From IMG/VR virus record IMGVR_UViG_3300025168_000116, positions 1 to 54,104 of that record: a DNA stretch of 54,104 nucleotides; one strand, given 5' to 3'. The notes under the pieces are model-generated. The model saw only the letters and a program-made list of their open reading frames with translations. It did not search any database and was not told the DNA's origin. A program made the position numbers and the translations under genes. This document shows, piece after piece, positions 8,496 through 52,395 of this stretch. This DNA comes from a virus (Duplodnaviria; Caudoviricetes). The first letter of the stretch is position 1; each line of letters opens with the position of its first letter.

Positions 8496-8515
8496 TTATA
8501 TTTAAAAAAAATCCT

Positions 8516-8523
8516 TAATTTTG
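8516..8523 (+). promoter_or_regulatory. -7 promoter element TAATTTTG for scaffold/capsid
   Basis: Intergenic TAnnTTTG before ATG 8549. Confidence 0.65.
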
Positions 8524-8548
8524 TACTTAATTAATTAAATCAAATAAA

Positions 8549-9703
8549 ATGTCAGAGTTAAAAGTAAAGGAAGTATCTAATGTTCCAGAGAAGTCTAAGG
8601 CTGAAATCGAAAAAGAATTATTAGACAAACATGAAGAGCAATTTGAAGACAGTGTTCCTAAAGAAGAAGTTACTGTAGTTGCTGAAGAAGAAATTAAAAC
8701 TGAAGAACCTCAAGAAGAGGTTAAGTCAGAAGAAAAAATTGAAGAGGAGGTAGTTAAAGAAGAATACCAAATTGGAGATGAAGACGTTCTTTCATTTATT
8801 AAAAATAGATACAGTAAAGAGATAAACTCTTTAGATGATTTGTTTGAACAAAAGGAAAGTAATGAGGAACTTCCAGAGGATGTTTCCGCTTATCTTAAAT
8901 TCAAAAAAGAAACTGGTCGTGGATTTCAAGACTTTGTAAACCTTAATAAGGATTATAATAGTATGGATAACGATCAACTCTTAGCAGAGTATTGGTCTCA
9001 ATCTAAACCACATTTAGACGCTGAGGATATTCAATTCGAGTTAGAAAATAAATTCGGATATGATGAAGACTTAGCAGATGATAAGGAGAAGAGACAGATT
9101 AATATAGCTAAGAAAGAAGAACTTGTAAAAGCTAAGAAGTATTTAAACAATCAAAAGGAACAATATGGTGTGCCACTTGAGTCAAGTAGTTCATTCGTTT
9201 CTCAAGACGAGCAAAATAACTACGAGGCTTACAAGAATTATGTTCAAGAATCGAACAGTATGCAAGAGCAGAATGTAAAAAGACAGGAGTATTTCACAAA
9301 GAAAACTAACGAATTATTTTCTACAGATTTCAAAGGTTTTGGTTTTAAAGTAGGAGAAAAGGAAATAGTTTTTAATCCAGGAAATGTGGATAAAATGAAA
9401 ACTACTCAGTCTGACATAACTAATTTTATTAATGCGCACATTAATGAGGATGGTTTTATTAAAGATGCTGCTGCATATCATAAGTCATTAGCTGTTGCTA
9501 TGAACTCTGAATCTTTTGCTAAGTTCTTTTATGAGCAAGGCAAATCAGACGCTGTTAGTGATATAACTAAGGAATCTAAAAACGTGGATATGCCCGTTAG
9601 AAAAGCTCCTGAAAGTATTAGTAAGGGTGGTTTCAGTGTTACAGCGGTAGGTAATGATCATGGTTCTGGATTAAAAATAAGAAGTAAAAAAAATAAAAAC
9701 TAA
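8549..9703 (+). CDS. Capsid scaffolding/assembly protein
   Basis: Very acidic helical protein between portal and major capsid. Confidence 0.7.
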   Translation: MSELKVKEVSNVPEKSKAEIEKELLDKHEEQFEDSVPKEEVTVVAEEEIKTEEPQEEVKSEEKIEEEVVKEEYQIGDEDVLSFIKNRYSKEINSLDDLFEQKESNEELPEDVSAYLKFKKETGRGFQDFVNLNKDYNSMDNDQLLAEYWSQSKPHLDAEDIQFELENKFGYDEDLADDKEKRQINIAKKEELVKAKKYLNNQKEQYGVPLESSSSFVSQDEQNNYEAYKNYVQESNSMQEQNVKRQEYFTKKTNELFSTDFKGFGFKVGEKEIVFNPGNVDKMKTTQSDITNFINAHINEDGFIKDAAAYHKSLAVAMNSESFAKFFYEQGKSDAVSDITKESKNVDMPVRKAPESISKGGFSVTAVGNDHGSGLKIRSKKNKN

Positions 9704-9721
9704 AAACTAAAACTTAAAAAA

Positions 9722-11128
9722 ATGGCAGGTTCAATAACAGGTGCTGCTGGACAACCAGCGTTAACACCATCGTCAAGTAAGGCAGCATTGCCTTCAAATT
9801 ATATTAACAACTTTGATTTTTTAAATCAATACTTACCAGACACTTACGAGAAAGAGTTTGAAAGATATGGAAACAGATCTATCAGTGCTTTCTTGAGAAT
9901 GGTTGGTGCAGAAATGCCTACTAACTCTGACCTTATTAAATGGGAAGAGCAAGGTAGACTACATACAAAGTTCGAGGGAGTAACTACAGCTACTGCTGAT
10001 GGTCAAGATAATGCTACTTTAGCTATCACTGGACACAACTTAAGAGCTGGTCAAACTATCTTCATTTCTGATGGTACGGCTGGATCTTCAGCAAGTAATA
10101 AAGCTATTGTTACTACTGCGACTAATGCTAACGATGTTACTGTAGCTTATTATGAAGCTGCTGGACAAGCGGTAGGTATGCAAGCTTCTACTAATATAGT
10201 TGTATTTGTATACGGTTCAGAGTTTAGAAAAGGATCTACCGGAATGGTTGGTTCTTTAGAGGCTGAACCAGTAATCAAGGACAATAAACCAATTATCATT
10301 AAAGATAAGTATGTTGTATCTGGTTCAGATATGGCTCAAATCGGATGGGTAGAGGTAACTTCAGAAAATGGAGCTTCAGGATACTTATGGTATATTAAGT
10401 CAGAGCACGAAACAAGATTACGTTTTGATGATTATCTTGAAATGTCAATGATTGAAGGTGTTCCAGCAGAAGCAGGTTCAGGAGCTATAGCAAGTCTTTC
10501 TCCAGCCCCAGGTGCAACTGACGCAGGTACAAAAGGTTTATTTCACGAAATTGAGAACAACGGTAACGTTTGGTCTGGTGGAAACCCTTCTGCTTTAGCT
10601 GACTTTGATGCTATTATTCAGAGATTAGATAAGCAAGGTGCTATCCAAGAGAATGTAATGTTCGTTAACAGAGAGTTCGGTTTTGATATCGATGATATGT
10701 TAGCTGCTCAAAATTCTTATGGAGCTGGTGGTACTTCTTACGGATTGTTTGACAATGACGAAGAAATGGCACTTAACCTTGGATTCTCAGGATTCAAAAG
10801 AGGATATGAGTTCTATAAGACTGACTGGAAATACCTTAACGATGCTACATTAAGAGGTGGTATTATTGGTGGAGCTGTAAATGGTGTATTAGTACCAGCA
10901 GGTTCAACTAATGTTTACGATCAAGTAATGGGTAGAAACGCTAAGAGACCATTCTTACACGTAAGATACAGAGCTTCAGAAACTGAAGATAGAAGATATA
11001 AGACTTGGATGACTGGTTCTGCTGGCGGAGCTGCAACAAGTGACTTAGATGCAATGGAAGTTAATTTCTTATCAGAAAGAGCTCTTTGTACTTTAGGTGC
11101 TAATAACTTCTTTATCTTTAAGGATTAA
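9722..11128 (+). CDS. Major capsid protein
   Basis: 468 aa after the scaffold, with biased codon use and a strong terminator downstream. The sequence style (LPDTYEKEFERYGNR...WxEQGRLH) is that of Bacteroidota podophage capsids. Confidence 0.85.
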   Translation: MAGSITGAAGQPALTPSSSKAALPSNYINNFDFLNQYLPDTYEKEFERYGNRSISAFLRMVGAEMPTNSDLIKWEEQGRLHTKFEGVTTATADGQDNATLAITGHNLRAGQTIFISDGTAGSSASNKAIVTTATNANDVTVAYYEAAGQAVGMQASTNIVVFVYGSEFRKGSTGMVGSLEAEPVIKDNKPIIIKDKYVVSGSDMAQIGWVEVTSENGASGYLWYIKSEHETRLRFDDYLEMSMIEGVPAEAGSGAIASLSPAPGATDAGTKGLFHEIENNGNVWSGGNPSALADFDAIIQRLDKQGAIQENVMFVNREFGFDIDDMLAAQNSYGAGGTSYGLFDNDEEMALNLGFSGFKRGYEFYKTDWKYLNDATLRGGIIGGAVNGVLVPAGSTNVYDQVMGRNAKRPFLHVRYRASETEDRRYKTWMTGSAGGAATSDLDAMEVNFLSERALCTLGANNFFIFKD

Positions 11129-11142
11129 GAATAACAATTACT

Positions 11143-11174
11143 AGGGGAGGGTTAATTCCCTCCTCTTTTTTTTT
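11143..11174 (+). terminator. Intrinsic terminator after major capsid gene
   Basis: GGGGAGGG-ttaatt-CCCTCCTC followed by a T run. Confidence 0.85.
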
Positions 11175-11197
11175 ACAATTAAATTAAATCTAATAAA

Positions 11198-11938
11198 ATG
11201 AAAACAGAATTAAAAGACAGGGTATATGTATTGAAATCTCAAACAACCCCTTTGAGTTATATGTTAAACTCAAGAAATACAAGAAGAGCACCATTATTAT
11301 ATTTTGACGAAGATATGGGAGTTAATAGACCACTTCGTTATGCAAGAAATCAAAAGAGTCCTTTTGAGGATGAGCAAGATGACAATGCTATTTTAGAACC
11401 AATAGTATTTGAAGATGGTTTTTTAAGTGTTCCAAAAAATAATCCAGTATTACAAAAATTTCTAAACTTACATCCTGGTATAAATAAAATATACGAAGAG
11501 GTGAACACAGAGAAAGACGCTAGTAAAGATGTTGCTAGTTTGGATAGTCAACTGGATGCAGAAATAGCTGCTAAAGAATTAGAAATAGATATGATTGAAA
11601 ACATAGCTAGACTACTAATGGGTTCTACTGTAGATAAGTTAACAAGCTCTGAATTAAGAAGAGATGTTAGATTATATGCTAGAGAATATCCATTGGAGTT
11701 TTTAGAAATGGTTGACGATCCTATGGTTAGGCTACAAGGTTTAGCTAAAAAGGCATTAGACTCTAAATTTCTTTCATTAAGAAATGGAGACAGAGATGTA
11801 TTCTTTAACCTTAAGAATAACAAGAAGAAAATGATTACTGTACCTTTTGACGAGACACCAGTGTCTGCTATATCAGCATTTTTAAAGTCTGACGAAGGTG
11901 TAGAAATTATGAAGATGTTAGAGAAAAAGGTAAATTAA
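11198..11938 (+). CDS. Hypothetical protein of the capsid module
   Basis: 246-aa ORF with an AATTAAATTAAATC start context. Confidence 0.8.
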   Translation: MKTELKDRVYVLKSQTTPLSYMLNSRNTRRAPLLYFDEDMGVNRPLRYARNQKSPFEDEQDDNAILEPIVFEDGFLSVPKNNPVLQKFLNLHPGINKIYEEVNTEKDASKDVASLDSQLDAEIAAKELEIDMIENIARLLMGSTVDKLTSSELRRDVRLYAREYPLEFLEMVDDPMVRLQGLAKKALDSKFLSLRNGDRDVFFNLKNNKKKMITVPFDETPVSAISAFLKSDEGVEIMKMLEKKVN

Positions 11939-11943
11939 TTTAC

Positions 11944-11951
11944 TATATTTG
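11944..11951 (+). promoter_or_regulatory. -7 promoter element TATATTTG driving putative sRNA
   Basis: TAnnTTTG with no ATG between it and the terminator at 11993-12021. Confidence 0.65.
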
Positions 11952-11955
11952 TGCT

Positions 11956-12021
11956 TTCATATAGTTGTTTGTTTCTTTCATAGTGAAGAGGGGAGAGGGT
12001 TGAGGCCCTCTCTTTTTTTTT
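11956..12021 (+). ncRNA. Putative trans-acting small RNA antisense to translation-start regions
   Basis: Bounded by its own promoter and terminator. ATAGTTGTTTGTTT (11961-11974) also occurs at 41849-41862 and 41983-41996, where minus-strand genes start, so it is complementary to those mRNAs. Confidence 0.55.
11993..12021 (+). terminator. Intrinsic terminator
   Basis: GAGAGGGT-tgag-GCCCTCTC followed by T9. Confidence 0.85.
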
Positions 12022-12023
12022 AC

Positions 12024-12031
12024 TATCTTTG
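12024..12031 (+). promoter_or_regulatory. -7 promoter element TATCTTTG
   Basis: Directly after the terminator U-tract, before ATG 12061. Confidence 0.7.
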
Positions 12032-12060
12032 TACTTTATTAATCCCATAAATTTTTAAAC

Positions 12061-12339
12061 ATGGAAAAATTCTTAAGTATTCCTGTAACAGGTGAACAAA
12101 ACCAGTTGGTTTCTTGTGCAGGTATAAAATTAATTGACGCAGCTTCAGCAACGGCAACCACTACAGTTATCACATATGCTGGAGGAAAAGTAGTAACATT
12201 AACACATGCAGCTCAAGTAGCTTTCAGTATGAGAGACGCTATTCAAAATGCAATGGTATCTGCTTTACAATCACAATGGCAATATGTTTCACATGATGTA
12301 GCTGTTCCACAAGCAGTTAGCGGTATCGCAATAGCTTAG
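12061..12339 (+). CDS. Small virion protein paralog 1 (decoration-like)
   Basis: Ala/Thr/Val-rich 92 aa, similar to the next two ORFs. Function is inferred from position. Confidence 0.65.
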   Translation: MEKFLSIPVTGEQNQLVSCAGIKLIDAASATATTTVITYAGGKVVTLTHAAQVAFSMRDAIQNAMVSALQSQWQYVSHDVAVPQAVSGIAIA

Positions 12340-12343
12340 TGTT

Positions 12344-12865
12344 ATGGATAAGTTTTTAAACATACCAGAACAAGATTTAGTAGTTAACGTAACTTCTATA
12401 ACTCAAATTGGATCTGCTGGTTTATCTACAACAAGTTCTACAGCTTTTGATAACGTTTCTGTCGGGGACATTGTTCATGAAGCAACTACTAATAAATATT
12501 ATTTAGTATCTGGACTTATAGATGGTAATCAGCTGAACATAACAGCTTTGGATGGTGGTGCAGTTCCAATCTTAGCTTCAAAAGAGTGTTTTATTCATTC
12601 GGCAACTACAAGTAAATCTCAGTTGGTTTCTTGTGCAGGTATTGGGTTAATTGAACAAGCTTCTACTAGTACAGTTACTATAACTTTTGATGATGCAGCT
12701 GCATCTGATGTAGTTACTATAACTCACGTTCCTCTTGGATCGGGTAGTGAAGCTATGAGAGACGCTATTCAAAATGAAGTTATAAGTGCTCTTCAAACTT
12801 CTTGGACTAGTGTTTCTAACTCAGTTGCTTTACCTAAACAAGTGATTGGTGTTAGCATAGGGTAA
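12344..12865 (+). CDS. Small virion protein paralog 2 with ~80-aa inserted domain
   Basis: Shares MxKFLxIP, QLVSCAGIxLI and MRDAIQNxxxSALQxxW with 12061-12339. Confidence 0.65.
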   Translation: MDKFLNIPEQDLVVNVTSITQIGSAGLSTTSSTAFDNVSVGDIVHEATTNKYYLVSGLIDGNQLNITALDGGAVPILASKECFIHSATTSKSQLVSCAGIGLIEQASTSTVTITFDDAAASDVVTITHVPLGSGSEAMRDAIQNEVISALQTSWTSVSNSVALPKQVIGVSIG

Positions 12866-12889
12866 TACCTTTTAACATACATTTATTAC

Positions 12890-12917
12890 AAGAGGGCTTT
12901 ATAGTCCTCTTTTTTTT
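12890..12917 (+). terminator. Intrinsic terminator
   Basis: AGAGGGCT-ttat-AGTCCTCT plus a T run that merges into TATCTTTG (12917-12924). Confidence 0.8.
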
Positions 12918-12928
12918 ATCTTTGTATT

Positions 12929-13234
12929 ATGAATAATTTTATATCTATACCAATTACTGATGGGGCTGGAAACTATAACGTCATAGTACAAACAAGTCAT
13001 ATAATTACAGCTGTCAGGCATTCATCAACTTTAACACATATACTTACACCTGCTGTAGGTGCTCAAGGAAGTGATGATATAATTGATGTTACACACGCAG
13101 CGGACACTGCTCAAAACTCAGTTGCTACAGCTATAATGATGGCGGTAGTTGCAGCCTCATCTATATTAGGTCAGAGTGGTACGGTTCGAGCTGTTGACTC
13201 TCCTGTTAATATAACTGCTGTTGATCACTCTTAA
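12929..13234 (+). CDS. Small virion protein paralog 3 (divergent; probably leaderless)
   Basis: The MNNFISIPIT...VTHAA...AIxxAVVAA pattern matches paralog 1. The ATG is 4 nt after TATCTTTG. Confidence 0.6.
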   Translation: MNNFISIPITDGAGNYNVIVQTSHIITAVRHSSTLTHILTPAVGAQGSDDIIDVTHAADTAQNSVATAIMMAVVAASSILGQSGTVRAVDSPVNITAVDHS

Positions 13235-13260
13235 AATAGCGTGTCTCTATTTTTTTTCAT

Positions 13261-13268
13261 TATCTTTG
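13261..13268 (+). promoter_or_regulatory. -7 promoter element TATCTTTG of tail operon
   Basis: Intergenic TAnnTTTG before ATG 13285. Confidence 0.7.
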
Positions 13269-13284
13269 TATCAAACATTTTTAG

Positions 13285-14070
13285 ATGATTAATACGGTAA
13301 GAAACACTGTCATGGCTGTCCTTAATAAGGATAACAATGGTTATCTTACTCCAGAAGAGTTTAACCTATTTGCTAAACAAGCGCAGTTAGAGATATTTGA
13401 AGAGTATTTTTATACTTATAATAACTGGATAAATAAGCAAAATAAGAGACTAAGCAGTACGGGGTATGCTGATATGCCTAGGCAATTAGTAGAAGTTATA
13501 GATACGTTTACTCAATTTAAAGCATTAACACTATCAACAAACAGTGAACAAACATTTGAGCTTCCTATAGATTGGTATACGTTTATATACGTGCAGTATA
13601 AGCAAGATTGTGGAGCTGCTGGAGCTTCTAACAATGAAGCGGAAAGAGTGAATGAAGGGCAAATAAATAGATTATTATCGTCTAATCTTACCTCTCCATC
13701 TAAACATCACCCTGCATATGTTTTTGCTCAACAAGGCCTTGGTATTACTCCAGGTCCTGGAACAAATACATATGGTAATTTAGGAAACCAGATAACTCTT
13801 TACCCAGCAAAAGGAGCAGGTTGCACATTAGATTGTGACTTAACCTATGTAAGATATCCAAAAGATCCTAAGTGGACTTATAACACAGTGTCGGGATCTC
13901 CTATATTTAATCAATCTGCTAGTGACTATCAAGATTTTGAACTTGCACTTTCTGATCAAGTAGAGATGACATTAAAAATATTACAGTATGCTGGTGTTAA
14001 TATAAGAGAACCAGAGATCGTTCAGTTTGCCTCTGGTCAAGAAGCAGTTAATAATCAAAGTGAATCATAA
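13285..14070 (+). CDS. Head-tail adaptor / tail ring protein
   Basis: NKxNNGYLTPEEFNLFAxQAQ N-terminus with LPxD and YxRxP motifs typical of podovirus adaptor rings. Position fits. Confidence 0.65.
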   Translation: MINTVRNTVMAVLNKDNNGYLTPEEFNLFAKQAQLEIFEEYFYTYNNWINKQNKRLSSTGYADMPRQLVEVIDTFTQFKALTLSTNSEQTFELPIDWYTFIYVQYKQDCGAAGASNNEAERVNEGQINRLLSSNLTSPSKHHPAYVFAQQGLGITPGPGTNTYGNLGNQITLYPAKGAGCTLDCDLTYVRYPKDPKWTYNTVSGSPIFNQSASDYQDFELALSDQVEMTLKILQYAGVNIREPEIVQFASGQEAVNNQSES

Positions 14071-14999
14071 TGGCTTATTTAACTAATTATCAATATTACA
14101 ACAACGGAGGTAATGCTCCTACTAACGCTAACTGGGGTAGTTACCAGTATGTTCCATTAAAGGATATAGTTAACAACTTTATGTTGATGTATGCTGATGA
14201 TGACAGTACTATAGGTAAGGTTAATAGATACGCTGTATTATTTCACGCTAAAAGAGGTATTCAAGAAATAACTTATGACGCACTTAGAAACATAAAAGTA
14301 TTAGAGTTTTGCATGGCAGAATGTGATAACTTAAAAATGATACTACCTAGTGATTATGTTAATTATGTAAGAATATCTGTAGAAAAAGATGGTGTGTTAT
14401 TCCCATTACACGAAAACCAAAGCATTAACTACGCAACTGAATATTTAAGAGATAATAATTGTGAGTTTTTATTTGATCAAGACGGAGAAGTGCTAGAAGC
14501 TGAAAACTCTCAATTAGATAGAAACAGACTTAATGGTTTACCTCAGTCTCAATTTTTAGGCGCAGGGGCAAGGTATGGTCAAATGGGGTGGAATGTAGAT
14601 GGTGAATGGTTTTTTAGATATGGGGTTGGCGGTGCTTTTTACGGATTAGATACTTCTAAGGCTAACATTAATGATAACTTTAGAATAGATAAAAAGTCTG
14701 GAGTAATTAACTTTAGCTCAGGAGTTAAAGACCAGTGTATAGTAATAGAGTATGTGTCAGATGGTATGGAGAATGGAGATGATGAATCTGTTAGTATTAA
14801 TAAGTTAGCCGAAGGATATCTATATGCTTATATAAAAGCTTCCATTTTAGAGAATAGAATAAGTGCACAAGAGTATGTGATAAGAAGAGCCAATAAAGAT
14901 AAGATGGCTAAGTTAAGAAACACTAAGATTAGATTAAGTAACATACACGCAGGTAGACTTCTTATGCCATTAAGAGGGCGTGATAAATGGATTAAATGA
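14070..14999 (+). CDS. Tail ring / tubular protein
   Basis: LPxDYVNYVRIS and IEYVSDG motifs. It precedes the nozzle gene. Confidence 0.65.
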   Translation: MAYLTNYQYYNNGGNAPTNANWGSYQYVPLKDIVNNFMLMYADDDSTIGKVNRYAVLFHAKRGIQEITYDALRNIKVLEFCMAECDNLKMILPSDYVNYVRISVEKDGVLFPLHENQSINYATEYLRDNNCEFLFDQDGEVLEAENSQLDRNRLNGLPQSQFLGAGARYGQMGWNVDGEWFFRYGVGGAFYGLDTSKANINDNFRIDKKSGVINFSSGVKDQCIVIEYVSDGMENGDDESVSINKLAEGYLYAYIKASILENRISAQEYVIRRANKDKMAKLRNTKIRLSNIHAGRLLMPLRGRDKWIK

Positions 15000-36980: not shown

Positions 36981-37201
36981 TTGTGACGAGTTTTAGTGTT
37001 TTATGACAAGTTTATAGTGGTTTGTGACAACTTTGTGACAACCTATTTGTTTAACTCAAGTAACTTAACTAGCTCATTAGCAGTACCTTGAGATTTTCCA
37101 TTCCTAGAATGACAACTTTTCTTACATATATACAAGAAAAAAATATAAATACTATTTAAAAGTATAAAGAGAGTAGGGAGACTTATTTTGATTCTTGTCA
37201 T
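36981..37201. repeat. Origin-like element copy A (TGACAA iterons, AT-rich core)
   Basis: TGACAA/TGACGA at 36984, 37004, 37025, 37036 and 37110, inverted at 37195. It shares 23 identical nt with 47359-47381. Confidence 0.65.
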
Positions 37202-39846: not shown

Positions 39847-40250
39847 ATCTCTTTAAATAAATCAATCATACTTAGGGTTTTTGCTTCTTGCATATGTATT
39901 TTTTTTACTTTCTTTTCTTTTGTCTTTTTGTTTTTATTATAGTAAGATCTAAATGAGTCACTCTTAAGCTCATAAACTCTGCCATGTTTATTGCTTATTA
40001 CTTTTACATATTTACTCACATCATTAGTGAATATATTAACCTCTTCTTGATTAAGGTTTCTTTCATAAACATCACTATATCCTGTGTTCTTTCCTGGCCT
40101 GAACCCTTGCTTAGAGGTGACGTCCTTTTTGTTAGATATTATGTAGTATTCTCTTTTAAATCTACCTAGTTGTAGTTCACCTTTAGTAACTGAGACACAC
40201 ACAGCGTGTGTTATTCCCTTGTCTTGTAGTTGTTCAAATATATTTTTCAT
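39840..40250 (-). CDS. Hypothetical basic protein
   Basis: 136-aa ORF in the operon. Confidence 0.65.
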   Translation of the reverse strand: MKNIFEQLQDKGITHAVCVSVTKGELQLGRFKREYYIISNKKDVTSKQGFRPGKNTGYSDVYERNLNQEEVNIFTNDVSKYVKVISNKHGRVYELKSDSFRSYYNKNKKTKEKKVKKIHMQEAKTLSMIDLFKEIW

Positions 40251-41682: not shown

Positions 41683-41850
41683 CTACTCAGCAGTCGGTAA
41701 GCTAATTGAACTTCTGTGATCCAATGATTCTTCATTCCTGTGTATTTTAAGTATTACTTTTCTTTTGTTTTTAAAGTCGGTTAACTTCTCTTGGTGATAG
41801 TCAATCCACTCTTGATTCTCTGTTAGCATTTTATTTATTACTTCTTTCAT
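41683..41850 (-). CDS. Small early protein (55 aa, not in ORF track); candidate sRNA target
   Basis: MKEVINKMLTENQEWIDYH... The start context AAACAAACAACTATGAAAG overlaps the upstream stop (ATGA). Confidence 0.55.
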   Translation of the reverse strand: MKEVINKMLTENQEWIDYHQEKLTDFKNKRKVILKIHRNEESLDHRSSISLPTAE

Positions 41851-41984
41851 AGTTGTTTGTTTTTAATTATTGAAATGGCTCTTAATAACCCATGACCTTC
41901 TGCTTTTTCTCTGGAATTACCAAAGTCTAAAAGCTCTTGGGCGCACTCTTCAATGTGTTTTATTTTTTTATTTAAGTCTTTCAT
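41847..41984 (-). CDS. Small early protein (45 aa, not in ORF track); candidate sRNA target
   Basis: MKDLNKKIKHIEECAQELLDFGNSREKAEGHGLLRAISIIKNKQL. It is the first gene after the promoter at 42004-42035. Confidence 0.6.
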   Translation of the reverse strand: MKDLNKKIKHIEECAQELLDFGNSREKAEGHGLLRAISIIKNKQL

Positions 41985-42003
41985 AGTTGTTTGTTTTAGT
42001 TTA

Positions 42004-42047: not shown

Positions 42048-42695
42048 TTATATTGATTCTAGATAAGTTTTTATTTTTAGTAAGTCTGATCCGCTTAAGT
42101 CAAACCATTCCCCTCTGACCCTATTCTTTTTAAACATATTGTGAAGTTTCTTTTCGTCACTGTGTTTACCCTCTTTGTTAAATATCATTTCTATCGTTGG
42201 CTTCTCTGATTGAAGAGTTTTTTCTCTTAAACTAGGGTTGATAGACCTTCCTATCTTATAGTATCCTGTGTTTTTATCTATCATTACATATACTTTAGTT
42301 GTCTTGCCTTTAAATTCAAAAGATTTTAAATTCTTTATATATAATCTCACGTCTTTTTGTACCTCCTTAAAGTTATTGTTTAAAACATCTCCCTTTACTG
42401 TTGGGCTTTCTTTACCGTAGTAAGTGTCAAAATCTTGTTGAGGATGAAACTTCGTTAAGGTTGGTTTAAAAAAATATTTCTCCTCTTTTTCTATATACAT
42501 CCAGTATGACCAATATTTAAATGAGTTTTCTATATCTATTATCTCATATATCTTACCCTTAGTAGGGTAAAACTTTTTTATTTCTTTTGCGTTTTCTCTG
42601 CACCAATCTATTCTAAGTTGTTTTAAGTTGTTAGTTTGTTTTATTAATTCTTGAAATTTATCATTAAATTCTTTTAGTTTTTTTAAATATTCCAT
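42048..42695 (-). CDS. GIY-YIG (T5orf172/MUG113-like) domain protein
   Basis: C-terminal VYVM...YKIGRS..P..R...LQ...EKxLH..F...RVRGEWFDL. Confidence 0.85.
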   Translation of the reverse strand: MEYLKKLKEFNDKFQELIKQTNNLKQLRIDWCRENAKEIKKFYPTKGKIYEIIDIENSFKYWSYWMYIEKEEKYFFKPTLTKFHPQQDFDTYYGKESPTVKGDVLNNNFKEVQKDVRLYIKNLKSFEFKGKTTKVYVMIDKNTGYYKIGRSINPSLREKTLQSEKPTIEMIFNKEGKHSDEKKLHNMFKKNRVRGEWFDLSGSDLLKIKTYLESI

Positions 42696-43417: not shown

Positions 43418-43771
43418 TTAAAATCTTCCATCATTTTCTATTTTTAGCAAATTATCTTCTAATTCTCCCAGATATTCAATATAATATTCTGCATAATCAA
43501 AATTTATTATTTCATTCTGTTGATCCTCAATCATCCAAGCTCTCATGTCTTGGACTGTATAAATTGATTCTTTTAACAAATGTTTATTGTTACTTTCAAC
43601 ATGAGTGCAAGAAGTAAAAGTTAGTATTAAAATTAACCCCTTTATTTTTTTTATTATTTCTATTATTTTTTTAAAGTCTTTCATGTTGTAGGGTTTTAAG
43701 CCGTGGTTTTTTGATATTCTTTTTATTAAAGGCATCATTTCTATTAGTGTTTTTTTTCCTATTGTTTTCAT
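43418..43771 (-). CDS. Hypothetical protein with internal lipobox-like segment
   Basis: 117 aa with KKIKGLILILTFTSC at residues ~41-55. Confidence 0.55.
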   Translation of the reverse strand: MKTIGKKTLIEMMPLIKRISKNHGLKPYNMKDFKKIIEIIKKIKGLILILTFTSCTHVESNNKHLLKESIYTVQDMRAWMIEDQQNEIINFDYAEYYIEYLGELEDNLLKIENDGRF

Positions 43772-43860: not shown

Positions 43861-44688
43861 TCATATTAATTGTGTTTTAATGTTGTTTATTTCTTTCATT
43901 GTTATATTGTGGCATCCTACCTTTAAAACTCCGTTTAGTGCCTTTACAATATATTTGTTATCTACCTTTTCACCTACTATCTTTTTTAAATCTATTAGCT
44001 TAAGTAGTCTTTTGCCCTCTTCAACTGGTATTTTAACGCCCTGAGAAGTCTCTATTATATTGTTTGCTTTGTCTACTCTTAAGAAGTCTTTATTAGTTTC
44101 ATTACTAAACCAATTAATTTCAAATGACCTCCATTTTTTTAACTTCTTTTGAACTTCTTTCTGCTTCTTTTCTTTATCTTTCTTTTGTTCTTCCTGGATT
44201 ACTTGCAATAAATTTTCAGTACTTACATAAAAATCATTATATAATTTTAATATTTCTCTATGTTCTTTACTTTTCTTTGCCTTAGTTCTAGTTTTGGTAA
44301 AGTCTATATACTCAAAGTAACTTTTAAATAAACGATCTATTGTTGATTTGTAATAGTCTGCTTTTAATCTAGTTCTAGTTAGTTTATTTAATAAGTCTTT
44401 TAATTCGCTTAGAACTAAATCTCTTTTGGTTTCTGTTATAAAAAATTGTTGTTTGTCTCTTGTTGCACTTCTTAATAATGAAATATGTTTTGATGTGGTG
44501 TTAGAATATCCTCTATCATTTATCATTATTGTGTTATCGTCTATAAATTCACCTAGTAAATAGTGTGAACCGTAAGAGTAAATCTTTTTATATTCAAAGT
44601 ACATTGAACCGTTGGAAGTTCTTCCAAAACTTTGCTCTTGCAAGTTAAATTCATGCACTATTTTGCTGTTTGTAAATACTGTTTTCAT
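43861..44688 (-). CDS. Hypothetical early protein
   Basis: 275-aa ORF after the promoter at 44713-44744. Confidence 0.75.
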   Translation of the reverse strand: MKTVFTNSKIVHEFNLQEQSFGRTSNGSMYFEYKKIYSYGSHYLLGEFIDDNTIMINDRGYSNTTSKHISLLRSATRDKQQFFITETKRDLVLSELKDLLNKLTRTRLKADYYKSTIDRLFKSYFEYIDFTKTRTKAKKSKEHREILKLYNDFYVSTENLLQVIQEEQKKDKEKKQKEVQKKLKKWRSFEINWFSNETNKDFLRVDKANNIIETSQGVKIPVEEGKRLLKLIDLKKIVGEKVDNKYIVKALNGVLKVGCHNITMKEINNIKTQLI

Positions 44689-45291: not shown

Positions 45292-45597
45292 TTAGTTTAA
45301 TTCTAATTCATTGCATATTTCAAGGCCTAACCAATAAACTAGATGATTTACTAATTTTTCTGCATTGTCAAAAGTTGTTTGAATTTCTCCGAAGTTTTCA
45401 AGCTCTGAATCGTTGCATATTTTAATTGCGTCGAATGTGTCTAAATCATGTTTTTTTAACCATTGTTCCGCCTGGTAATATCCAATAATATAATAACCCT
45501 CATTAAATGCGTGAAAATGTATTTCTTCTTGTGAACCTAAGTGTTCAATAGTTTCGTTTAAATGCTCTCTTAATTCTGTTTTAATTGATTCTTTCAT
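45292..45597 (-). CDS. Hypothetical acidic early protein (first gene of the early arm)
   Basis: 101 aa, Glu/Asp-rich, follows the promoter at 45630-45662. Confidence 0.7.
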   Translation of the reverse strand: MKESIKTELREHLNETIEHLGSQEEIHFHAFNEGYYIIGYYQAEQWLKKHDLDTFDAIKICNDSELENFGEIQTTFDNAEKLVNHLVYWLGLEICNELELN

Positions 45598-45629
45598 AAT
45601 TGTTAAATTAGTTAATTAATTTGTTGGTT

Positions 45630-45662
45630 CAAATATAAGTATAAATATAAATATAAAACAAG
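45630..45662 (-). promoter_or_regulatory. First early promoter, -33/-7 type
   Basis: Minus strand CTTG-N21-TATATTTG. Confidence 0.65.
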
Positions 45663-45781
45663 TGTTTAGGCATGTTTCTTTGAAATTTGCAACAATATTC
45701 TAATGTTTTTTTATATGCGAAATATTATTTGGTTAGTGGTTTAATCCTTAGAATTTTATTTGGATATTTAATACTTTCTTG

Positions 45782-45794
45782 TAACTTGTTGATT
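45782..45794 (-). promoter_or_regulatory. IHF-consensus site
   Basis: Minus strand AATCAACAAGTTA matches WATCAANNNNTTR. It shares 14 identical nt with 47324-47337. Confidence 0.5.
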
Positions 45795-45929
45795 AACAGA
45801 GCTTTACACTTTAGTTAGTTGTTTTGTTCTTCGGTTTGTCTATTGGTGGAAAAATTGGTTGGGTGTTTATCCACCCTTTAAAGGTGTGTTAATATATATT
45901 TATATAACAATTTACAGCTTGTTAATGTG

Positions 45930-46145
45930 GATTAATTGCAAAGGTTACAAGGTAACAAGGGCAACAGGTACGGGATGCGGGCAACTAGCAAACCAGAACA
46001 GCAGGGCAGCAGGGGAGCCGCTAGAAAACCGCAAAAGTATTGCAGGAGAACCCCTGAAAAGACACCCCCCTAGGGAAATTAGAACAACTTTCCTTTGAGG
46101 TGGTGACGACGTACAGCCATATATAACCCCCAACCTACGGATGTG
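45930..46145. other. GC-elevated non-coding segment between divergent arms; candidate genome end/packaging site
   Basis: Abrupt composition change, short AAGG(T/G)(T/A/C)AC repeats and C-runs. It lies between the divergent early and late promoters. Confidence 0.45.
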
Positions 46146-46172
46146 TAATAATAATATTCCAAACCAATTTAC

Positions 46173-46180
46173 TATCTTTG
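46173..46180 (+). promoter_or_regulatory. -7 promoter element TATCTTTG starting the + strand arm
   Basis: TAnnTTTG. The context TATCTTTGTATTATG is identical to 12917-12931. Confidence 0.7.
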
Positions 46181-46184
46181 TATT

Positions 46185-46284
46185 ATGCTTCTGCTAATCA
46201 TATAGGTGGGGTAGGTTTAAGCCTCGCCAGGAGAGACAAGCAGTTTTGGTTAGAGCCCAATACTGGTAAGAGGCTAAACTTTTT
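46185..46284 (+). promoter_or_regulatory. Structured leader / possible sRNA or attenuator
   Basis: GTTT(A)AGCCTC-GCCAG pairs with CTGGT-(AA)-GAGGCTAAAC, followed by T5. Confidence 0.4.
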
Positions 46285-46306
46285 AAATAACATAAAACAA
46301 AATAAG

Positions 46307-46471
46307 ATGGACGGTTTAACAATAAAAAATGGTAGGTTGATTAATAACAGACCAGACAGTGAAATGGGAATCACTAAAATATGTAGAATGAAAAAGGCTG
46401 AGAAGAGAGCTGAAAAGATCTCAATGATAGTAGAGGCCAATAGAATCTCTAACATGCTAGACAATGGGTAA
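46307..46471 (+). CDS. Small hypothetical protein (54 aa; ATG 46307)
   Basis: MDGLTIKNGRLINNRP... with an A-rich start. The ORF-track TTG start at 46178 lies inside the promoter. Confidence 0.65.
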   Translation: MDGLTIKNGRLINNRPDSEMGITKICRMKKAEKRAEKISMIVEANRISNMLDNG

Positions 46472-47156
46472 GATATCAGACACTAGTAAGTATCCAGTAG
46501 TAACACCTGCTGGAACAGACATAGTAATAGGTACTGATGTGGGGTCTAGTAATGCTACTAAGAACTTTACTATAGCAAGTATAAACGCACTAAATAATAC
46601 TTACGCACTAACTAACCCTTCTGGAGGTATATTACAGTTATCTGATGGAGTAGACACTTCTTCAGTTACACTAAGTAGTACAACTGGACTAGATATAACA
46701 AGTGCTGCTGCAAATACCATACGGATTAACTTAAGTACTCCTGTTGCTGTAGCTAATGGAGGTACAGGTTTAACTGCTGCTGGCAATAGAAGACAGGTGG
46801 TAACTTCTACTGGAACTGTCTTAGCTATGAAGAATAAGTTTGGTCCTGTATTATCAGAAGTAACATCTGTGACTGGAACGTATACTTGGAATTTTGATCT
46901 TGGAGATACCCTGTCTATTACACTAACAAATGGAGTAGCTACCACACTAGCAATAACTAATGTAGTTGACGGTGATGAAGGCACAGTATTAGTTACTGGA
47001 GCTGGAGGAGGTATTACACTACCTGATCCTGGAAGTAAGATTAAAGGATCATCATACTCTTCATCAAATGGTAAAGTAGACCTACTTAAATTTAAGTATA
47101 TAGGTAGTACATTTTACTGGGTAGCCACTGAAACTTTGGTAACATACTCACCTTAA
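46464..47156 (+). CDS. Short tail-fibre-like virion protein
   Basis: N-terminal anchor pattern D.VIGTD...TKNFTI, fibre motif PVAVANGGTGLT and a beta-rich C-terminus. Confidence 0.65.
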   Translation: MGKISDTSKYPVVTPAGTDIVIGTDVGSSNATKNFTIASINALNNTYALTNPSGGILQLSDGVDTSSVTLSSTTGLDITSAAANTIRINLSTPVAVANGGTGLTAAGNRRQVVTSTGTVLAMKNKFGPVLSEVTSVTGTYTWNFDLGDTLSITLTNGVATTLAITNVVDGDEGTVLVTGAGGGITLPDPGSKIKGSSYSSSNGKVDLLKFKYIGSTFYWVATETLVTYSP

Positions 47157-47179
47157 TTCTACTTAAAAAATATGAAACG

Positions 47180-47201
47180 AGGGGCTTGCGCCCCTTTTTT
47201 T
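47180..47201 (+). terminator. Intrinsic terminator
   Basis: AGGGGC-ttgc-GCCCCT followed by a T run. Confidence 0.85.
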
Positions 47202-47210
47202 GTGGCTAAA

Positions 47211-47459
47211 CTTGTCATGCAATAAACGGTATTAAACGTTTTAAAACGGATAATTGGGCTGTTTTATGACAAGATTAGGGTGTTTATGACAAGAAATGAC
47301 AACTTTAAAAAAAGCTGTCACGCTGTAACTTGTTGATAATCAGTAAGTTAATGGTGATATTCCTAGAATGACAACTTTTCTCTACGTATATAAGAAAAAA
47401 AAATATATATACATTAAATAGTATAGAGTAATAGGAGGTGTTTTCTTTGGAATCGTCAT
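47211..47459. repeat. Origin-like element copy B (TGACAA iterons, palindromic IHF sites, AT-rich core)
   Basis: ATGACAA at 47266, 47286, 47296 and 47368, with inverted copies near 47212, 47316 and 47453. TAACTTGTTGATAATCAGTAAGTTA lies at 47326-47350. Confidence 0.65.
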
Positions 47460-47507
47460 GGAAGATAATTAAGAGAATTATTACTAGTGGTTTATAAAAA
47501 ACATTTA

Positions 47508-47552
47508 TATATTTGCTTTATATATTTGCTGTGGTTTAAAAAGTATATTTGC
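47508..47552 (+). promoter_or_regulatory. Three tandem TATATTTGC -7 elements upstream of groEL
   Basis: Exact copies at 47508, 47521 and 47544. Confidence 0.65.
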
Positions 47553-47586
47553 AAATGTATAATGGTATAATTAAATTAAATTTATT

Positions 47587-49164
47587 ATGATAGTAAAACA
47601 AGTAAGCTTTGATAAAGAGGCTAGGGAAGATCTTATCAATGGTATTAATACACTAGCCAATGCAGTGAAGAGCACATTAGGTGCGAGAGGTCAGACTGTG
47701 TTAATAGAATCAGAGAATCATACAAAAGGGATTACAGTTACCAAGGATGGTGTAACAGTGGCTAGGAGTATTAACTTACTACACCCTACACAAAACCTAG
47801 CGGTGACTATGATGAAAGAGGCGGCTAGTAATACCGCAGTGGCAGCAGGCGATGGTACTACAACAGCAATAGTAATTACACAAGCTATAGTGCTAGAGGC
47901 ACAGAAAAGAATTAAACCACACATGAACTTAACAGAAATCATTAGGTCTATACAGTCTAGTTCTGAGTGGGTGGTAGAAAAGTTAAGTAAAAAGGCTAGA
48001 AAGATTAGTGGTAAGAAGTTGATTGATGTAGCTACAATATCAGCTAACAATGATAAGGTGCTAGGTGAGATTATAGCTAATGCTTATAAGGCAGTTGGAG
48101 AGAATGGAGTAGTTACTGTAGAGAATGCAAGTGGTAGTGAAACGTATTCTAATATTATTGATGGGATGAAGATTGATAGAGGAATGTCTTCTAAGTATTT
48201 TATTACGGATCAAAAGAAAGGAGAATGTGTACTAGAGAATCCTTACGTGATGGTAATAGACCAAGAGATATCTTCGTTAACAAGTATTGAACATGTTTTA
48301 GCTCCAGTCATACAAAGTGGTAAGCCGCTATTGATTATCGGAACGCTAACACCAGCGGCATTAAATACATTAAACCTTAATGTAGTTAAGGGTAATATCA
48401 AGGCGTGTGCAATCATACCACCACAGTTTGGATATAAGAGTGATGACTTAATGAGTGATATAGCTTACGCTACAGGAGCTAAATATTTTTCTGAGACCAC
48501 AGGTGATAATTTAGAATTAATGCAGATAGGGGACTTAGGAAGGTGTAAGAAAGCTATTATTGATAGGGGTAGTACAGTTCTGATTAAAAATGATGAGCAA
48601 TCTATAGACCAAAGAGTAGCTGAGCTATGGGATGAGTACAATACTGAGAAGCATGAGTCAGAGAAAGAGTTTATAAAGGAGCGTATTGCTATTATGTCTG
48701 GTGGAGTAGCGGTCATTAATGTGGGTGCAAACAGTGATATAGAGCAAAAGGAAAAGAGAGATAGGGTAGATGATGCAGTATGTGCTACTAGAGCAGCATT
48801 AGAAGAGGGAATATTACCTGGAGGAGGTATAGCTCTATTGGATACTTCTAAGGAACTATTAGAACGTGGAGACGGTGAGACTATGCTTGTAGCTAATGCA
48901 ATCCTCTCAGAGGCTTTAAAAGCACCATTTAAGCAGATATTAACCAATGCAGGGATTGATTCTAAGGAAATAGAACCTAATTTAGACCCAGGCATAGGAT
49001 ATGATGTTAAGAATGACAAGTATGGAAATATGATTAAGATGGGTATAATAGACCCAATGAAGGTTACTAAGAATGCACTAGAGAATGCGGTATCTGTAGC
49101 GACAACCATATTAAGTACAAATGCAATAATAACAAACGTAAGAGACTATGAAAGCGATAGGTAA
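47587..49164 (+). CDS. groL: Chaperonin GroEL
   Basis: LANAVKSTLG, TKDGVTVA, AGDGTTTA, ATISANND, EEGILPGGG and GIIDPxKV. It has no GGM tail. Confidence 0.97.
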   Translation: MIVKQVSFDKEAREDLINGINTLANAVKSTLGARGQTVLIESENHTKGITVTKDGVTVARSINLLHPTQNLAVTMMKEAASNTAVAAGDGTTTAIVITQAIVLEAQKRIKPHMNLTEIIRSIQSSSEWVVEKLSKKARKISGKKLIDVATISANNDKVLGEIIANAYKAVGENGVVTVENASGSETYSNIIDGMKIDRGMSSKYFITDQKKGECVLENPYVMVIDQEISSLTSIEHVLAPVIQSGKPLLIIGTLTPAALNTLNLNVVKGNIKACAIIPPQFGYKSDDLMSDIAYATGAKYFSETTGDNLELMQIGDLGRCKKAIIDRGSTVLIKNDEQSIDQRVAELWDEYNTEKHESEKEFIKERIAIMSGGVAVINVGANSDIEQKEKRDRVDDAVCATRAALEEGILPGGGIALLDTSKELLERGDGETMLVANAILSEALKAPFKQILTNAGIDSKEIEPNLDPGIGYDVKNDKYGNMIKMGIIDPMKVTKNALENAVSVATTILSTNAIITNVRDYESDR

Positions 49165-52203: not shown

Positions 52204-52232
52204 TAAAGATAGAAATTTTATTATTATCTTTG
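52204..52232. promoter_or_regulatory. Back-to-back divergent -7 elements
   Basis: TATCTTTA on minus (52204-52211) and TATCTTTG on plus (52225-52232), each 4-5 nt from an ATG. Confidence 0.6.
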
Positions 52233-52236
52233 TCGT

Positions 52237-52395
52237 ATGAAAAGTAAAGGACTTGGTGATAGCGTAGAAAAATTTACACAAGCCACAGGTATTAAATCAA
52301 TCGTAGAGAAAGGTGCTGCTGCATTAGGGAAAGATTGCGGATGTAGTCAGAGAAAAAATAAGCTAAACGAGTTATTTCCTTACGGTAAAAAATAA
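52237..52395 (+). CDS. Small protein with CGC motif (52 aa, not in ORF track)
   Basis: MKSKGLGDSVEKFTQATGIK...DCGCSQRKNKLNELFPYGKK. Confidence 0.75.
   Translation: MKSKGLGDSVEKFTQATGIKSIVEKGAAALGKDCGCSQRKNKLNELFPYGKK

Follow-up and report, generated by a model that had tools for sequence, protein, structure and literature searches.

The head-gene block of the phage described here ends in what reads as a compact, conserved non-coding unit (11939-12021), in which a promoter box, an unstructured U/G-rich tail and an intrinsic terminator follow one another. Our data show that the tail has a modest excess of complementarity to start regions, found in three lineages and specific to the early gene block. 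A discrete short RNA is probably produced from the unit, an estimate that we base mainly on the replacement of its promoter in a sister lineage. It is possible, and we put it forward tentatively as the preferred reading of the sequence, that this product is an anti-leader RNA whose U/G-rich tail pairs with the leaders of early genes.

The window, by which we mean the whole stretch of 54,104 bases that was analysed, is the whole phage record, a linear one estimated to be 89% complete, and belongs to a Flavobacteriia-type podophage, apparently a virulent one. Its capsid protein has 63.5% identity to that of the uncultured podovirus MW202828.1, about 50% to those of Flavobacterium elemoviruses and about 41% to those of Cellulophaga phages. 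The minus-strand block from 45.6 to 30.5 kb is called 'early' throughout, a status that we infer from its gene content and from its position at a divergent control region. The phage had been described in the earlier note as having neither an RNA polymerase nor a sigma factor, and domain searches agree with this: Sigma70_r2 and Sigma70_r4_2 had no match in the genomes G000, G001 or G002, and the Pfam search for a T7-type RNA polymerase gave no match, which is a weak result since the control matched in no genome either. No tRNA or tmRNA was found in the window, and no Rfam family reached its gathering score anywhere in it. For the 215-aa early protein (42048-42695), no relative was found among viral contigs.

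Anatomy of the unit

Table 1. Coordinates of the unit, of its surroundings and of its best predicted targets in the window
Feature	Position	Strand	Remarks
Structural block: terminase, portal, capsid and tail genes	about 0.1-30.5 kb	+	
Head-module gene, 246 aa, PHROG 34748 (function unknown)	11198-11938	+	stop codon directly 5' of the unit
Extended promoter-like repeat, copy 1	11939-11957	+	17/19 positions identical to copy 2 at 12019-12037
P1, Bacteroidota-type -7 box TATATTTG	11944-11951	+	five bases past the stop codon of the 246-aa gene
U/G-rich unstructured tail, putative seed	11956-11985	+	17 T and 5 G of 30; contains the 14-mer 11961-11974 and the 12-mer 11973-11984
Intrinsic terminator	11986-12021	+	GC core 11993-11999 : 12006-12012, loop 12000-12005, T9 12013-12021
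P2, -7 box TATCTTTG for the next cassette (gene 12061-12339, ATG 12061)	12024-12031	+	
Small-gene block, about 35 genes including primase/helicase-like	45.6 to 30.5 kb	-	
Best predicted target 1: leader and start codon of the 55-aa early ORF 41683-41850	41844-41862	-	-17.5 kcal/mol, rank 3/79
Best predicted target 2: identical 19-nt leader and start of the 45-aa early ORF 41847-41984	41978-41996	-	-17.3 kcal/mol, rank 4/79
Third gene block	46.4-54.1 kb	+	

The layout described in the earlier note, with a promoter box, an unstructured U-rich part lacking ATG and a GC hairpin followed by T9, is present at the positions given there, the unstructured stretch being about 30 nt long, and the next gene does have a promoter of its own (P2 in Table 1). 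In the predicted fold (-20.5 kcal/mol), positions 11956-11985 are unpaired and are followed by a long hairpin and the T9 tract; the stem consists of a 7-bp GC core lengthened to 16 pairs. The sole competing fold is a weak 6-bp hairpin, in which the terminator is intact. The segment 11986-12021, with its GC-rich hairpin running directly into a U tract, ranks strongest among the four strong terminators of the genome (the other three lie at 11166, 12910 and 47195), and its function as a terminator can be regarded as safe.

No ATG occurs on the plus strand from 11952 to 12021, and a small peptide encoded there was rejected on this ground; the mini-frames of the minus strand were rejected because they are not conserved in relatives. 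Both TTTCAT copies previously noticed in the single-stranded part were located, at 11955-11960 and 11976-11981. As a whole, the tail equals the complement of a 19-nt early leader with two extra bases inserted, followed by a second partial copy. A T+G content as high as that of the tail is found in 1.2% of the sense-strand 30-nt segments between positions 1 and 30504.

Three seawater metatranscriptome runs, available as assembled contigs, contained 6-15% of the sampled words. The contigs lying on 8500-14100 cover mostly the capsid gene and parts of cassettes and leave the bin 11866-12052 uncovered; since contigs cannot reveal short RNAs, we take this result as neutral. As a separate observation on the cassettes, the 92-aa and the 173-aa genes have two 23-nt repeats in common.

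Promoter-like elements and conservation among relatives

Promoters of the Bacteroidota sigma-A have a -7 box with the consensus TAnnTTTG and a -33 element, TTTG, located about 19-21 nt upstream. The TATATTTG box of P1 agrees with this -7 consensus. Upstream of it, no -33 element (TTG or TTTG) was recognised by eye, and the other intergenic boxes of the phage are likewise devoid of a clear one. The bare box TANNTTTG is not enriched, being found 69 times in the genome versus 81 +/- 10 times in shuffles. For the extended 19-nt promoter-like repeat, there are 3 sites at up to three mismatches versus 0.42 expected, and 3 sites were reached by 2 of 100 shuffles. P1 and P2 are near-identical direct repeats lying on both sides of the tail and terminator.

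Relatives were collected via the 246-aa gene, which yielded 80 viral and 80 metagenomic loci; as some of these probably represent the same contig, distinct sequences were counted too. The closest relatives (group 1) comprise 14 loci with 7 distinct spacers and at least 89% amino acid identity in the flanking gene. The TATATTTG box, TTGTTTGT, TTTCATA and the terminator are all kept in 14/14 of them, and the first TTTCAT is kept in 10/14. When read by eye, the stem sequence of the terminator varies among relatives and the hairpin persists. The neighbouring spacer, which separates the capsid gene from the 246-aa gene, is conserved at least equally within group 1, so that the spacer of the unit does not stand out by its conservation among these loci.

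The sister lineage (group 2) comprises 32 loci with 15 distinct spacers at about 69% amino acid identity. A -7 box before the terminator is lacking in all 32, and in its place xAAC-N15/16-CGTA stands directly after the stop codon (32/32 spacers), followed by a U/G-rich stretch, the terminator and then the -7 box of the next gene. Among the group-2 variants AAC, CGTA and the spacing between them are constant and the bases in between are variable, so that the motif looks like a working promoter. It combines a -35 AAC block with a T tract, a -10 CGTA and fixed spacing, and resembles the ECF-sigma promoter form tGAAACnTTTt ... CGTA (PMC5758882). The 59.9-kb record G001, estimated to be 99% complete, has seven matches to the motif: five upstream of early genes and on the same strand as these, one in the spacer and one in the capsid region opposite the strand of the structural genes; the reversed pattern, used as a control, has one match in this genome. 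In G002 the motif is matched four times, once in the spacer and three times on the strand opposite to that copy. The window lacks the motif, except for one match inside coding sequence. No cognate sigma was recognised through the Sigma70_r2 and r4_2 searches of G000, G001 and G002, and the motif may be read by a host-encoded ECF sigma or by a divergent factor of the phage.

We regard the group-2 motif at the unit as the most telling result of the analysis. Two lineages have different promoter-like elements at one and the same spot, each directed into a homologous tail and terminator, which argues that the short unit is transcribed for a reason. The tail itself can be aligned between groups 1 and 2 (a 17-column block; local alignment P-value = 0.026 in 2000 shuffles), and the matching stretch before the terminator in the neighbouring spacer shows no conservation between the two groups.

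Among more distant relatives the picture is mixed. L108/L111 (57%) have TATATTTG, about 20 nt and then a terminator; in L025/L107 and L106 the box is degenerate. U/G-rich tails are found at the same site in L025/L107, L047 and MW202828.1, the last of which has a 26-nt U/G-rich stretch reaching from the stop codon to the terminator and no promoter. In many other distant relatives the stretch before the terminator is not U/G-rich, or there is simply, right past the stop codon, a -7 box driving the next gene, in some cases four bases before its ATG. The elemoviruses (Flavobacterium phages, 50% capsid identity) show no U/G tail before the terminator and are therefore uninformative. The expectation that related phages would carry a promoter-seed-terminator unit at the syntenic site thus holds for all 14 close loci and, with a different motif, for group 2; it does not extend to MW202828.1, where the promoter is missing, or to L025/L107 and L106, where it is degenerate.

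The timing of the putative RNA can be approached from the same data. The earlier proposal that it is late-expressed is unsupported, since the motif standing at this place in group 2 is otherwise early-only and P1 is of the TATATTTG variant, which recurs in the control region at 45.6-47.6 kb (at 47508, 47521 and 47544 and, on the minus strand, at 45630-45637); TATCTTTG is the variant used by the structural cassettes. Both observations speak against late expression. It should be noted that the argument from box variants draws on small numbers and deserves little weight.

Complementarity to early gene starts

Exact recurrence of parts of the tail was the starting point of the idea that the RNA is antisense to early genes, and the recurrences were confirmed: the 14-mer is repeated at 41849-41862 and 41983-41996 and the 12-mer at 41842-41853, and these sites are indeed minus-strand gene starts, those of the two ORFs listed as targets in Table 1. 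The matched block spans the start codon together with the second and third codons, and one of the two 19-nt leader copies falls within the 3'-terminal coding sequence of the gene upstream. Taken on their own, the exact matches are at the background level for an AT-rich genome and, singly, the features are not unusual. The genome contains 167 clusters of exactly repeated 14-mers versus 77 +/- 12 in 20 dinucleotide shuffles, and 6.3% of 5408 30-nt segments have a best non-self match as good as that of the tail. What is uncommon is the summed score of the tail's three best matches, which 0.7% of 30-nt segments equal. Of the five best matches of the tail, two are away from gene starts: 40056-40067 and, with a score tied for first place, 43882-43899. 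Used as a probe, the 19-nt leader also turned up at gene starts of six further viral contigs, either distant or unrelated, and it is a generic start tag and no marker of the phage group. A conserved target gene was dropped from consideration, as neither of the two best target genes has a homologue in 20 kb of the G001 early region.

Complementarity was also considered at the level of whole sets of genes. ViennaRNA duplex energies were calculated for the tail paired with start regions (-30 to +15 relative to the start codon). Shuffled tails that preserved the dinucleotide content served as the control, and the main measure was the mean of the five best energies. For the window the tail reaches -16.9 against the 35 leftward early starts versus -14.3 in shuffles (p = 0.007-0.02), -12.2 versus -12.8 against 23 late starts (p = 0.67) and -14.2 versus -12.5 against 16 rightward starts (p = 0.13). 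The G001 tail scores -21.0 against its 37 early starts versus -16.8 in shuffles, a value equalled by 0 of 150. The MW202828.1 tail scores -14.5 versus -12.2 against 31 early starts (p = 0.007-0.02), -12.5 versus -11.6 against 21 late starts (p = 0.17) and -11.4 versus -11.4 against the 16 other starts (p = 0.52). In the window, ten early starts pair at -13 kcal/mol or below versus 4.4 in shuffles; when all 79 starts are considered the signal is weaker (p = 0.075 for the top five and 0.017 for the count). Reversed-seed controls were weaker in 3/3 lineages. In G001 the pairing partners of the tail are two blocks of the repeated early leader of that genome, AACCAATAAA and AATTATG.

Several results limit the strength of this signal. 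The best single duplex energy does not exceed that of shuffles, 27-38% of which do as well; by the top-five and count measures, the early starts come out ahead of shuffled controls in all three lineages. Much of the window signal comes from two identical leaders, without which it weakens to p of about 0.09. Without the AACCAA leaders, the G001 signal has p = 0.2 for the top five, 0.027 for the median and 0.03-0.06 across the median and the mean. The excess concerns the early block and not the late one; as to position within genes, early starts of the window are barely better than interiors of the same genes (-11.1 versus -10.3, Mann-Whitney P-value = 0.086). Of the additional, weaker matches suggested, the start at 45597 ranks 8th, that at 43771 19th and that at 44688 37th of 79 by duplex energy.

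Co-variation of seed and targets could be compared in only three genomes having both regions. The G001 tail prefers the early starts of its own genome (-21.0 versus -16.7), and the window tail does not, its energies against its own early starts and those of G001 being nearly equal (-16.9 and -16.6). Cis pairing, in the form of an mRNA 'panhandle', was considered and rejected: against the starts of its own operon and of the next gene (8549, 9722, 11198, 12061) the tail ranks 65th-77th of 79.

Explanations of the unit and known counterparts

According to the preferred reading, that of an anti-leader RNA, P1 would fire and give an RNA of about 65 nt; the same sequence also forms the 3' tail of the head-gene mRNA. 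The free 5' part of the short RNA would pair in the cell with A/C-rich leaders lacking a Shine-Dalgarno sequence, and with the start codons behind them, in a subset of the divergent early genes, among which the ORFs starting at 41850 and 41984 would be the favoured targets. Such pairing would dampen translation of early genes. As to timing, the RNA would more likely be co-produced with the early genes, as a delayed brake, than be a late product. A broader version of this proposal, in our view unlikely, is that Bacteroidota-type podophages have a terminator-anchored U/G-rich anti-leader riboregulator at the end of the head operon, which tracks their own early leader tags. Its promoter would be of the early class of the respective lineage (a host -7 box or an ECF-like element), or it would be a 3' tail where there is no promoter, and it would accumulate as a timer closing early translation on mRNAs without Shine-Dalgarno sequences.

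The same elements can be read as an ordinary 3' end, in which the terminator of the head transcript is accompanied by a duplicated or relic promoter (an 'empty cassette') that stayed behind when cassettes of promoter, gene and terminator were gained and lost at this hot spot, the short RNA is a by-product and the likeness to leaders reflects low-complexity U/G against A/C sequence. We find this somewhat unlikely, and it is a serious rival because of the cassette array, the whole-cassette differences among relatives and the P1/P2 repeats. The region 11939-13284 consists of successive cassettes, each made up of a -7 box, at least one small paralogous gene and a terminator; in L003, L004, L005, L008 and others 12019-12916 is lacking and the same terminator is joined to the next cassette; and the two repeats (17/19) bracket the tail and terminator. 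In many distant relatives the next gene is driven by a -7 box that directly follows the stop codon, without an intervening terminator, which is likely the ancestral state, and L108/L111, where the small genes are absent, resemble a box and a terminator separated by about 20 nt. The degenerate boxes of L025/L107 and L106 and the background level of the leader matches fit as well. A neutral remnant, however, should not stay alignable across lineages at 69% amino acid identity, nor would a U/G-rich tract be expected to recur in five of them. The well-conserved promoter-like motif of group 2 (32/32), aimed straight into a terminator, also stays unexplained in this way, as does the restriction of the excess complementarity to the early block in three genomes.

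Several other explanations retain the promoters or the tail and assign them a different role. P1, a short leader and the strong terminator might act as a transcriptional gate, limiting or timing read-through into the small-gene cassettes, with P2 providing their main, differently timed expression. The unit does lie directly upstream of cassette genes in all lineages, with two promoter classes in tandem around a single terminator, and sites where transcription starts and then terminates are common in phage transcriptomes, often as 5'-UTR events (PMC11512511). We consider a gate quite improbable: no antiterminator alternative is apparent, only the weak 6-bp hairpin competing with the terminator; P2 follows at once, in several relatives with an apparently leaderless gene, and makes a gate seem unnecessary; and the downstream gene changes among relatives while the unit is constant. 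It is highly improbable, in our estimate, that the shared sequence is a site at the DNA level, bound by a phage regulator at early leaders for repression and, inverted, in the spacer upstream of P2 for activation or insulation. Relative to transcription, the motif has opposite orientations at early starts and upstream of a late-module promoter in two lineages, and orientation is irrelevant for DNA sites. Yet the matched block includes the start, second and third codons, for which RNA pairing offers a rationale and an operator none, and one leader copy lies inside the coding 3' end of an upstream gene; no candidate regulator was identified, and the flanking promoter and terminator favour an RNA product. 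Finally, the reverse strand reads as a leader followed by ATGAAAG, and 11955-11984 resembles an early leader with two ATGs opening 5- and 12-codon frames, as a fossil or tiny minus-strand gene start would. This is hardly credible given that the frames are not conserved (the minus strand of L006, read by eye, offers only ATG AAA TAA), that the ATG at 11981 ranks 2787th of 108,162 positions by a start-region weight matrix and that the site is within a plus-strand operon.

The unit bears on the ordering of gene expression in virulent Bacteroidota phages without a polymerase or sigma factor of their own, and on translation control on mRNAs that lack Shine-Dalgarno sequences. If the anti-leader reading is true, the unit would be a case of a phage RNA acting on the phage's own early leaders, which may recur in other phages. 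If it is false, the locus still shows the shuffling of promoter-gene-terminator cassettes in a head module, and the sister lineage still shows ECF-like promoters for early genes. In the freely accessible full text of the literature, main articles only, nothing turned up on small RNAs of phages of Flavobacteriia or Bacteroidota. No Rfam family, tRNA or conserved small ORF accounts for the unit.

The layout of the unit is known from a bacterial system. FopS sRNAs of Bacteroides thetaiotaomicron have a canonical sigma-A promoter, a single-stranded 5' seed for the translation initiation region and a terminator hairpin (PMC11697453). The unit is like FopS and GibS in the order of a promoter (a putative one with a sigma-A-type -7 box in the unit), a single-stranded 5' seed (predicted in the unit) and then only a Rho-independent terminator. 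The seeds of those RNAs pair with initiation regions of mRNAs devoid of Shine-Dalgarno sequences (PMC11697453), as is proposed for the unit. It differs in being phage-encoded, in having early genes of the phage itself as putative targets and in showing no similarity in sequence or to covariance models: FopS (Rfam RF04319) had no match at the unit up to E = 10, its sole row in the window, at 11128-11207 of the minus strand, scoring 19 bits against a gathering score of 56. A match to AniS at 27.8 bits (gathering score 50) was discarded as a chance match driven by the terminator.

Among virulent phages, short promoter-to-terminator units and 5'-UTR-derived sRNAs have been mapped by transcripts in the Pseudomonas phages 201phi2-1 and phiKZ (PMC11512511). 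Those units combine a transcription start with an immediate terminator, lie beside structural genes and keep their position in related phages (PMC11512511), and our unit has the corresponding putative layout. The Pseudomonas units were defined by transcript mapping, whereas the unit of the window is predicted from sequence and has a second promoter past its terminator. 3'-UTR-derived sRNAs arise either from their own promoter (type I) or by processing (type II). The tail and terminator would correspond to such RNAs, with a putative promoter in groups 1 and 2 and promoterless, right after the stop codon, in MW202828.1.

Conceptually, the closest systems appear to be the c4 RNA of phage P1 and the RegA and RegB proteins of T4. 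In phages P1 and P7, c4 is a short antisense RNA of the phage that masks the ribosome-binding region of its own mRNA in trans; c4 and its target come from one operon, from whose transcript c4 is processed, and what it controls is an antirepressor of a temperate phage. The likeness consists in a phage-encoded short RNA acting on an mRNA start region of the same phage. The unit differs by its place among the head genes of a podophage that is apparently virulent, and by the many leaders that it would face. In T4, the translational repressor RegA and the endoribonuclease RegB shut down translation of many early mRNAs via their start regions. The outcome proposed here would be alike, reached by proteins there and by an RNA here, and the unit, if the broader version of the anti-leader reading is true, would be an RNA counterpart of RegA/RegB.

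Cassettes and expression in the head module

Between the 246-aa head-module gene and the 261-aa gene, positions 12019–13284 hold arrayed cassettes, each consisting of a promoter, one or more small genes and a terminator. The 92-aa and 173-aa genes have two 23-nt repeats in common (table). Since several relatives lack 12019–12916 entirely, the array is a hot spot for gain and loss of cassettes. Positions 11129–11197 contain no –7 box (the Bacteroidota-type promoter-like element) for the 246-aa gene itself, which directly follows the capsid gene terminator (11143–11175) and so is probably expressed via read-through, at a level below that of the capsid gene.

Start sites and the divergent control region

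At three sites in the window the –7 box TATCTTTG ends just 4 bases upstream of an ATG, a proximity which suggests that the mRNAs produced there are leaderless. Identical box-N4-ATG spacing occurs in distant relatives (loci L041, L081 and others). Elsewhere, two adjoining tiny ORFs of the putative early block, overlapping by 4 nt, have an identical 21-nt leader and start (41843–41863 and 41977–41997); one copy is intergenic, and the other sits inside the upstream ORF, at the 3' end of its coding sequence.

Positions 45600–47600 form a divergent control region with few ORFs. Direct repeats of up to 23 nt tie the spacer near 37.0–37.1 kb to this region near 47.3 kb.

Repeats, boxes and promoter-like motifs in the window and in relatives
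Feature	Location	Positions	Remark
23-nt repeat 1	Window	12103–12125 = 12620–12642	92-aa and 173-aa genes
23-nt repeat 2	Window	12228–12250 = 12754–12776	92-aa and 173-aa genes
TATCTTTG-N4-ATG	Window	12917–12931	
TATCTTTG-N4-ATG	Window	52225–52239	
TATCTTTG-N4-ATG	Window	46173–46187	ATG frame of only 6 codons
TATATTTGC boxes	Control region	47508, 47521, 47544	Three, tandem
TACATTTG	Control region	47552–47559	Opposing direction to tandem boxes
TATATTTG	Control region	45630–45637	Minus strand
Strong terminator	Control region	47195	
Direct repeat	Window	37100–37122 = 47359–47381	
Direct repeat	Window	36997–37010 = 47260–47273	
Direct repeat	Window	45780–45793 = 47324–47337	
GTTAACGAC core	MW202828.1	44573, 44840, 45631, 45925, 48962, 49907	Starts downstream of core
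GTAAC-N15/16-ACGTA	L168	877, 2367, 3560, 4688, 8223	

Possible early promoter or operator motifs in relatives

Early leaders of the uncultured podovirus MW202828.1 have in common GTTAACGAC, the core of a palindrome whose full form is GTCGTTAACGAC, ∼20–25 nt upstream of the ATG; one leader among six carries just its final bases, and A/C-rich leaders come after the core. This motif could be a further type of early promoter or operator. In the early region of the sister-lineage phage G001 (L168, G001:C1:32000–51999), the bipartite motif GTAAC-N15/16-ACGTA lies upstream of five early genes, each copy being followed after ∼5 nt by a common leader starting ATATAAAC. A search of G001 for a sigma domain found none; the motif itself is ECF-sigma-like.
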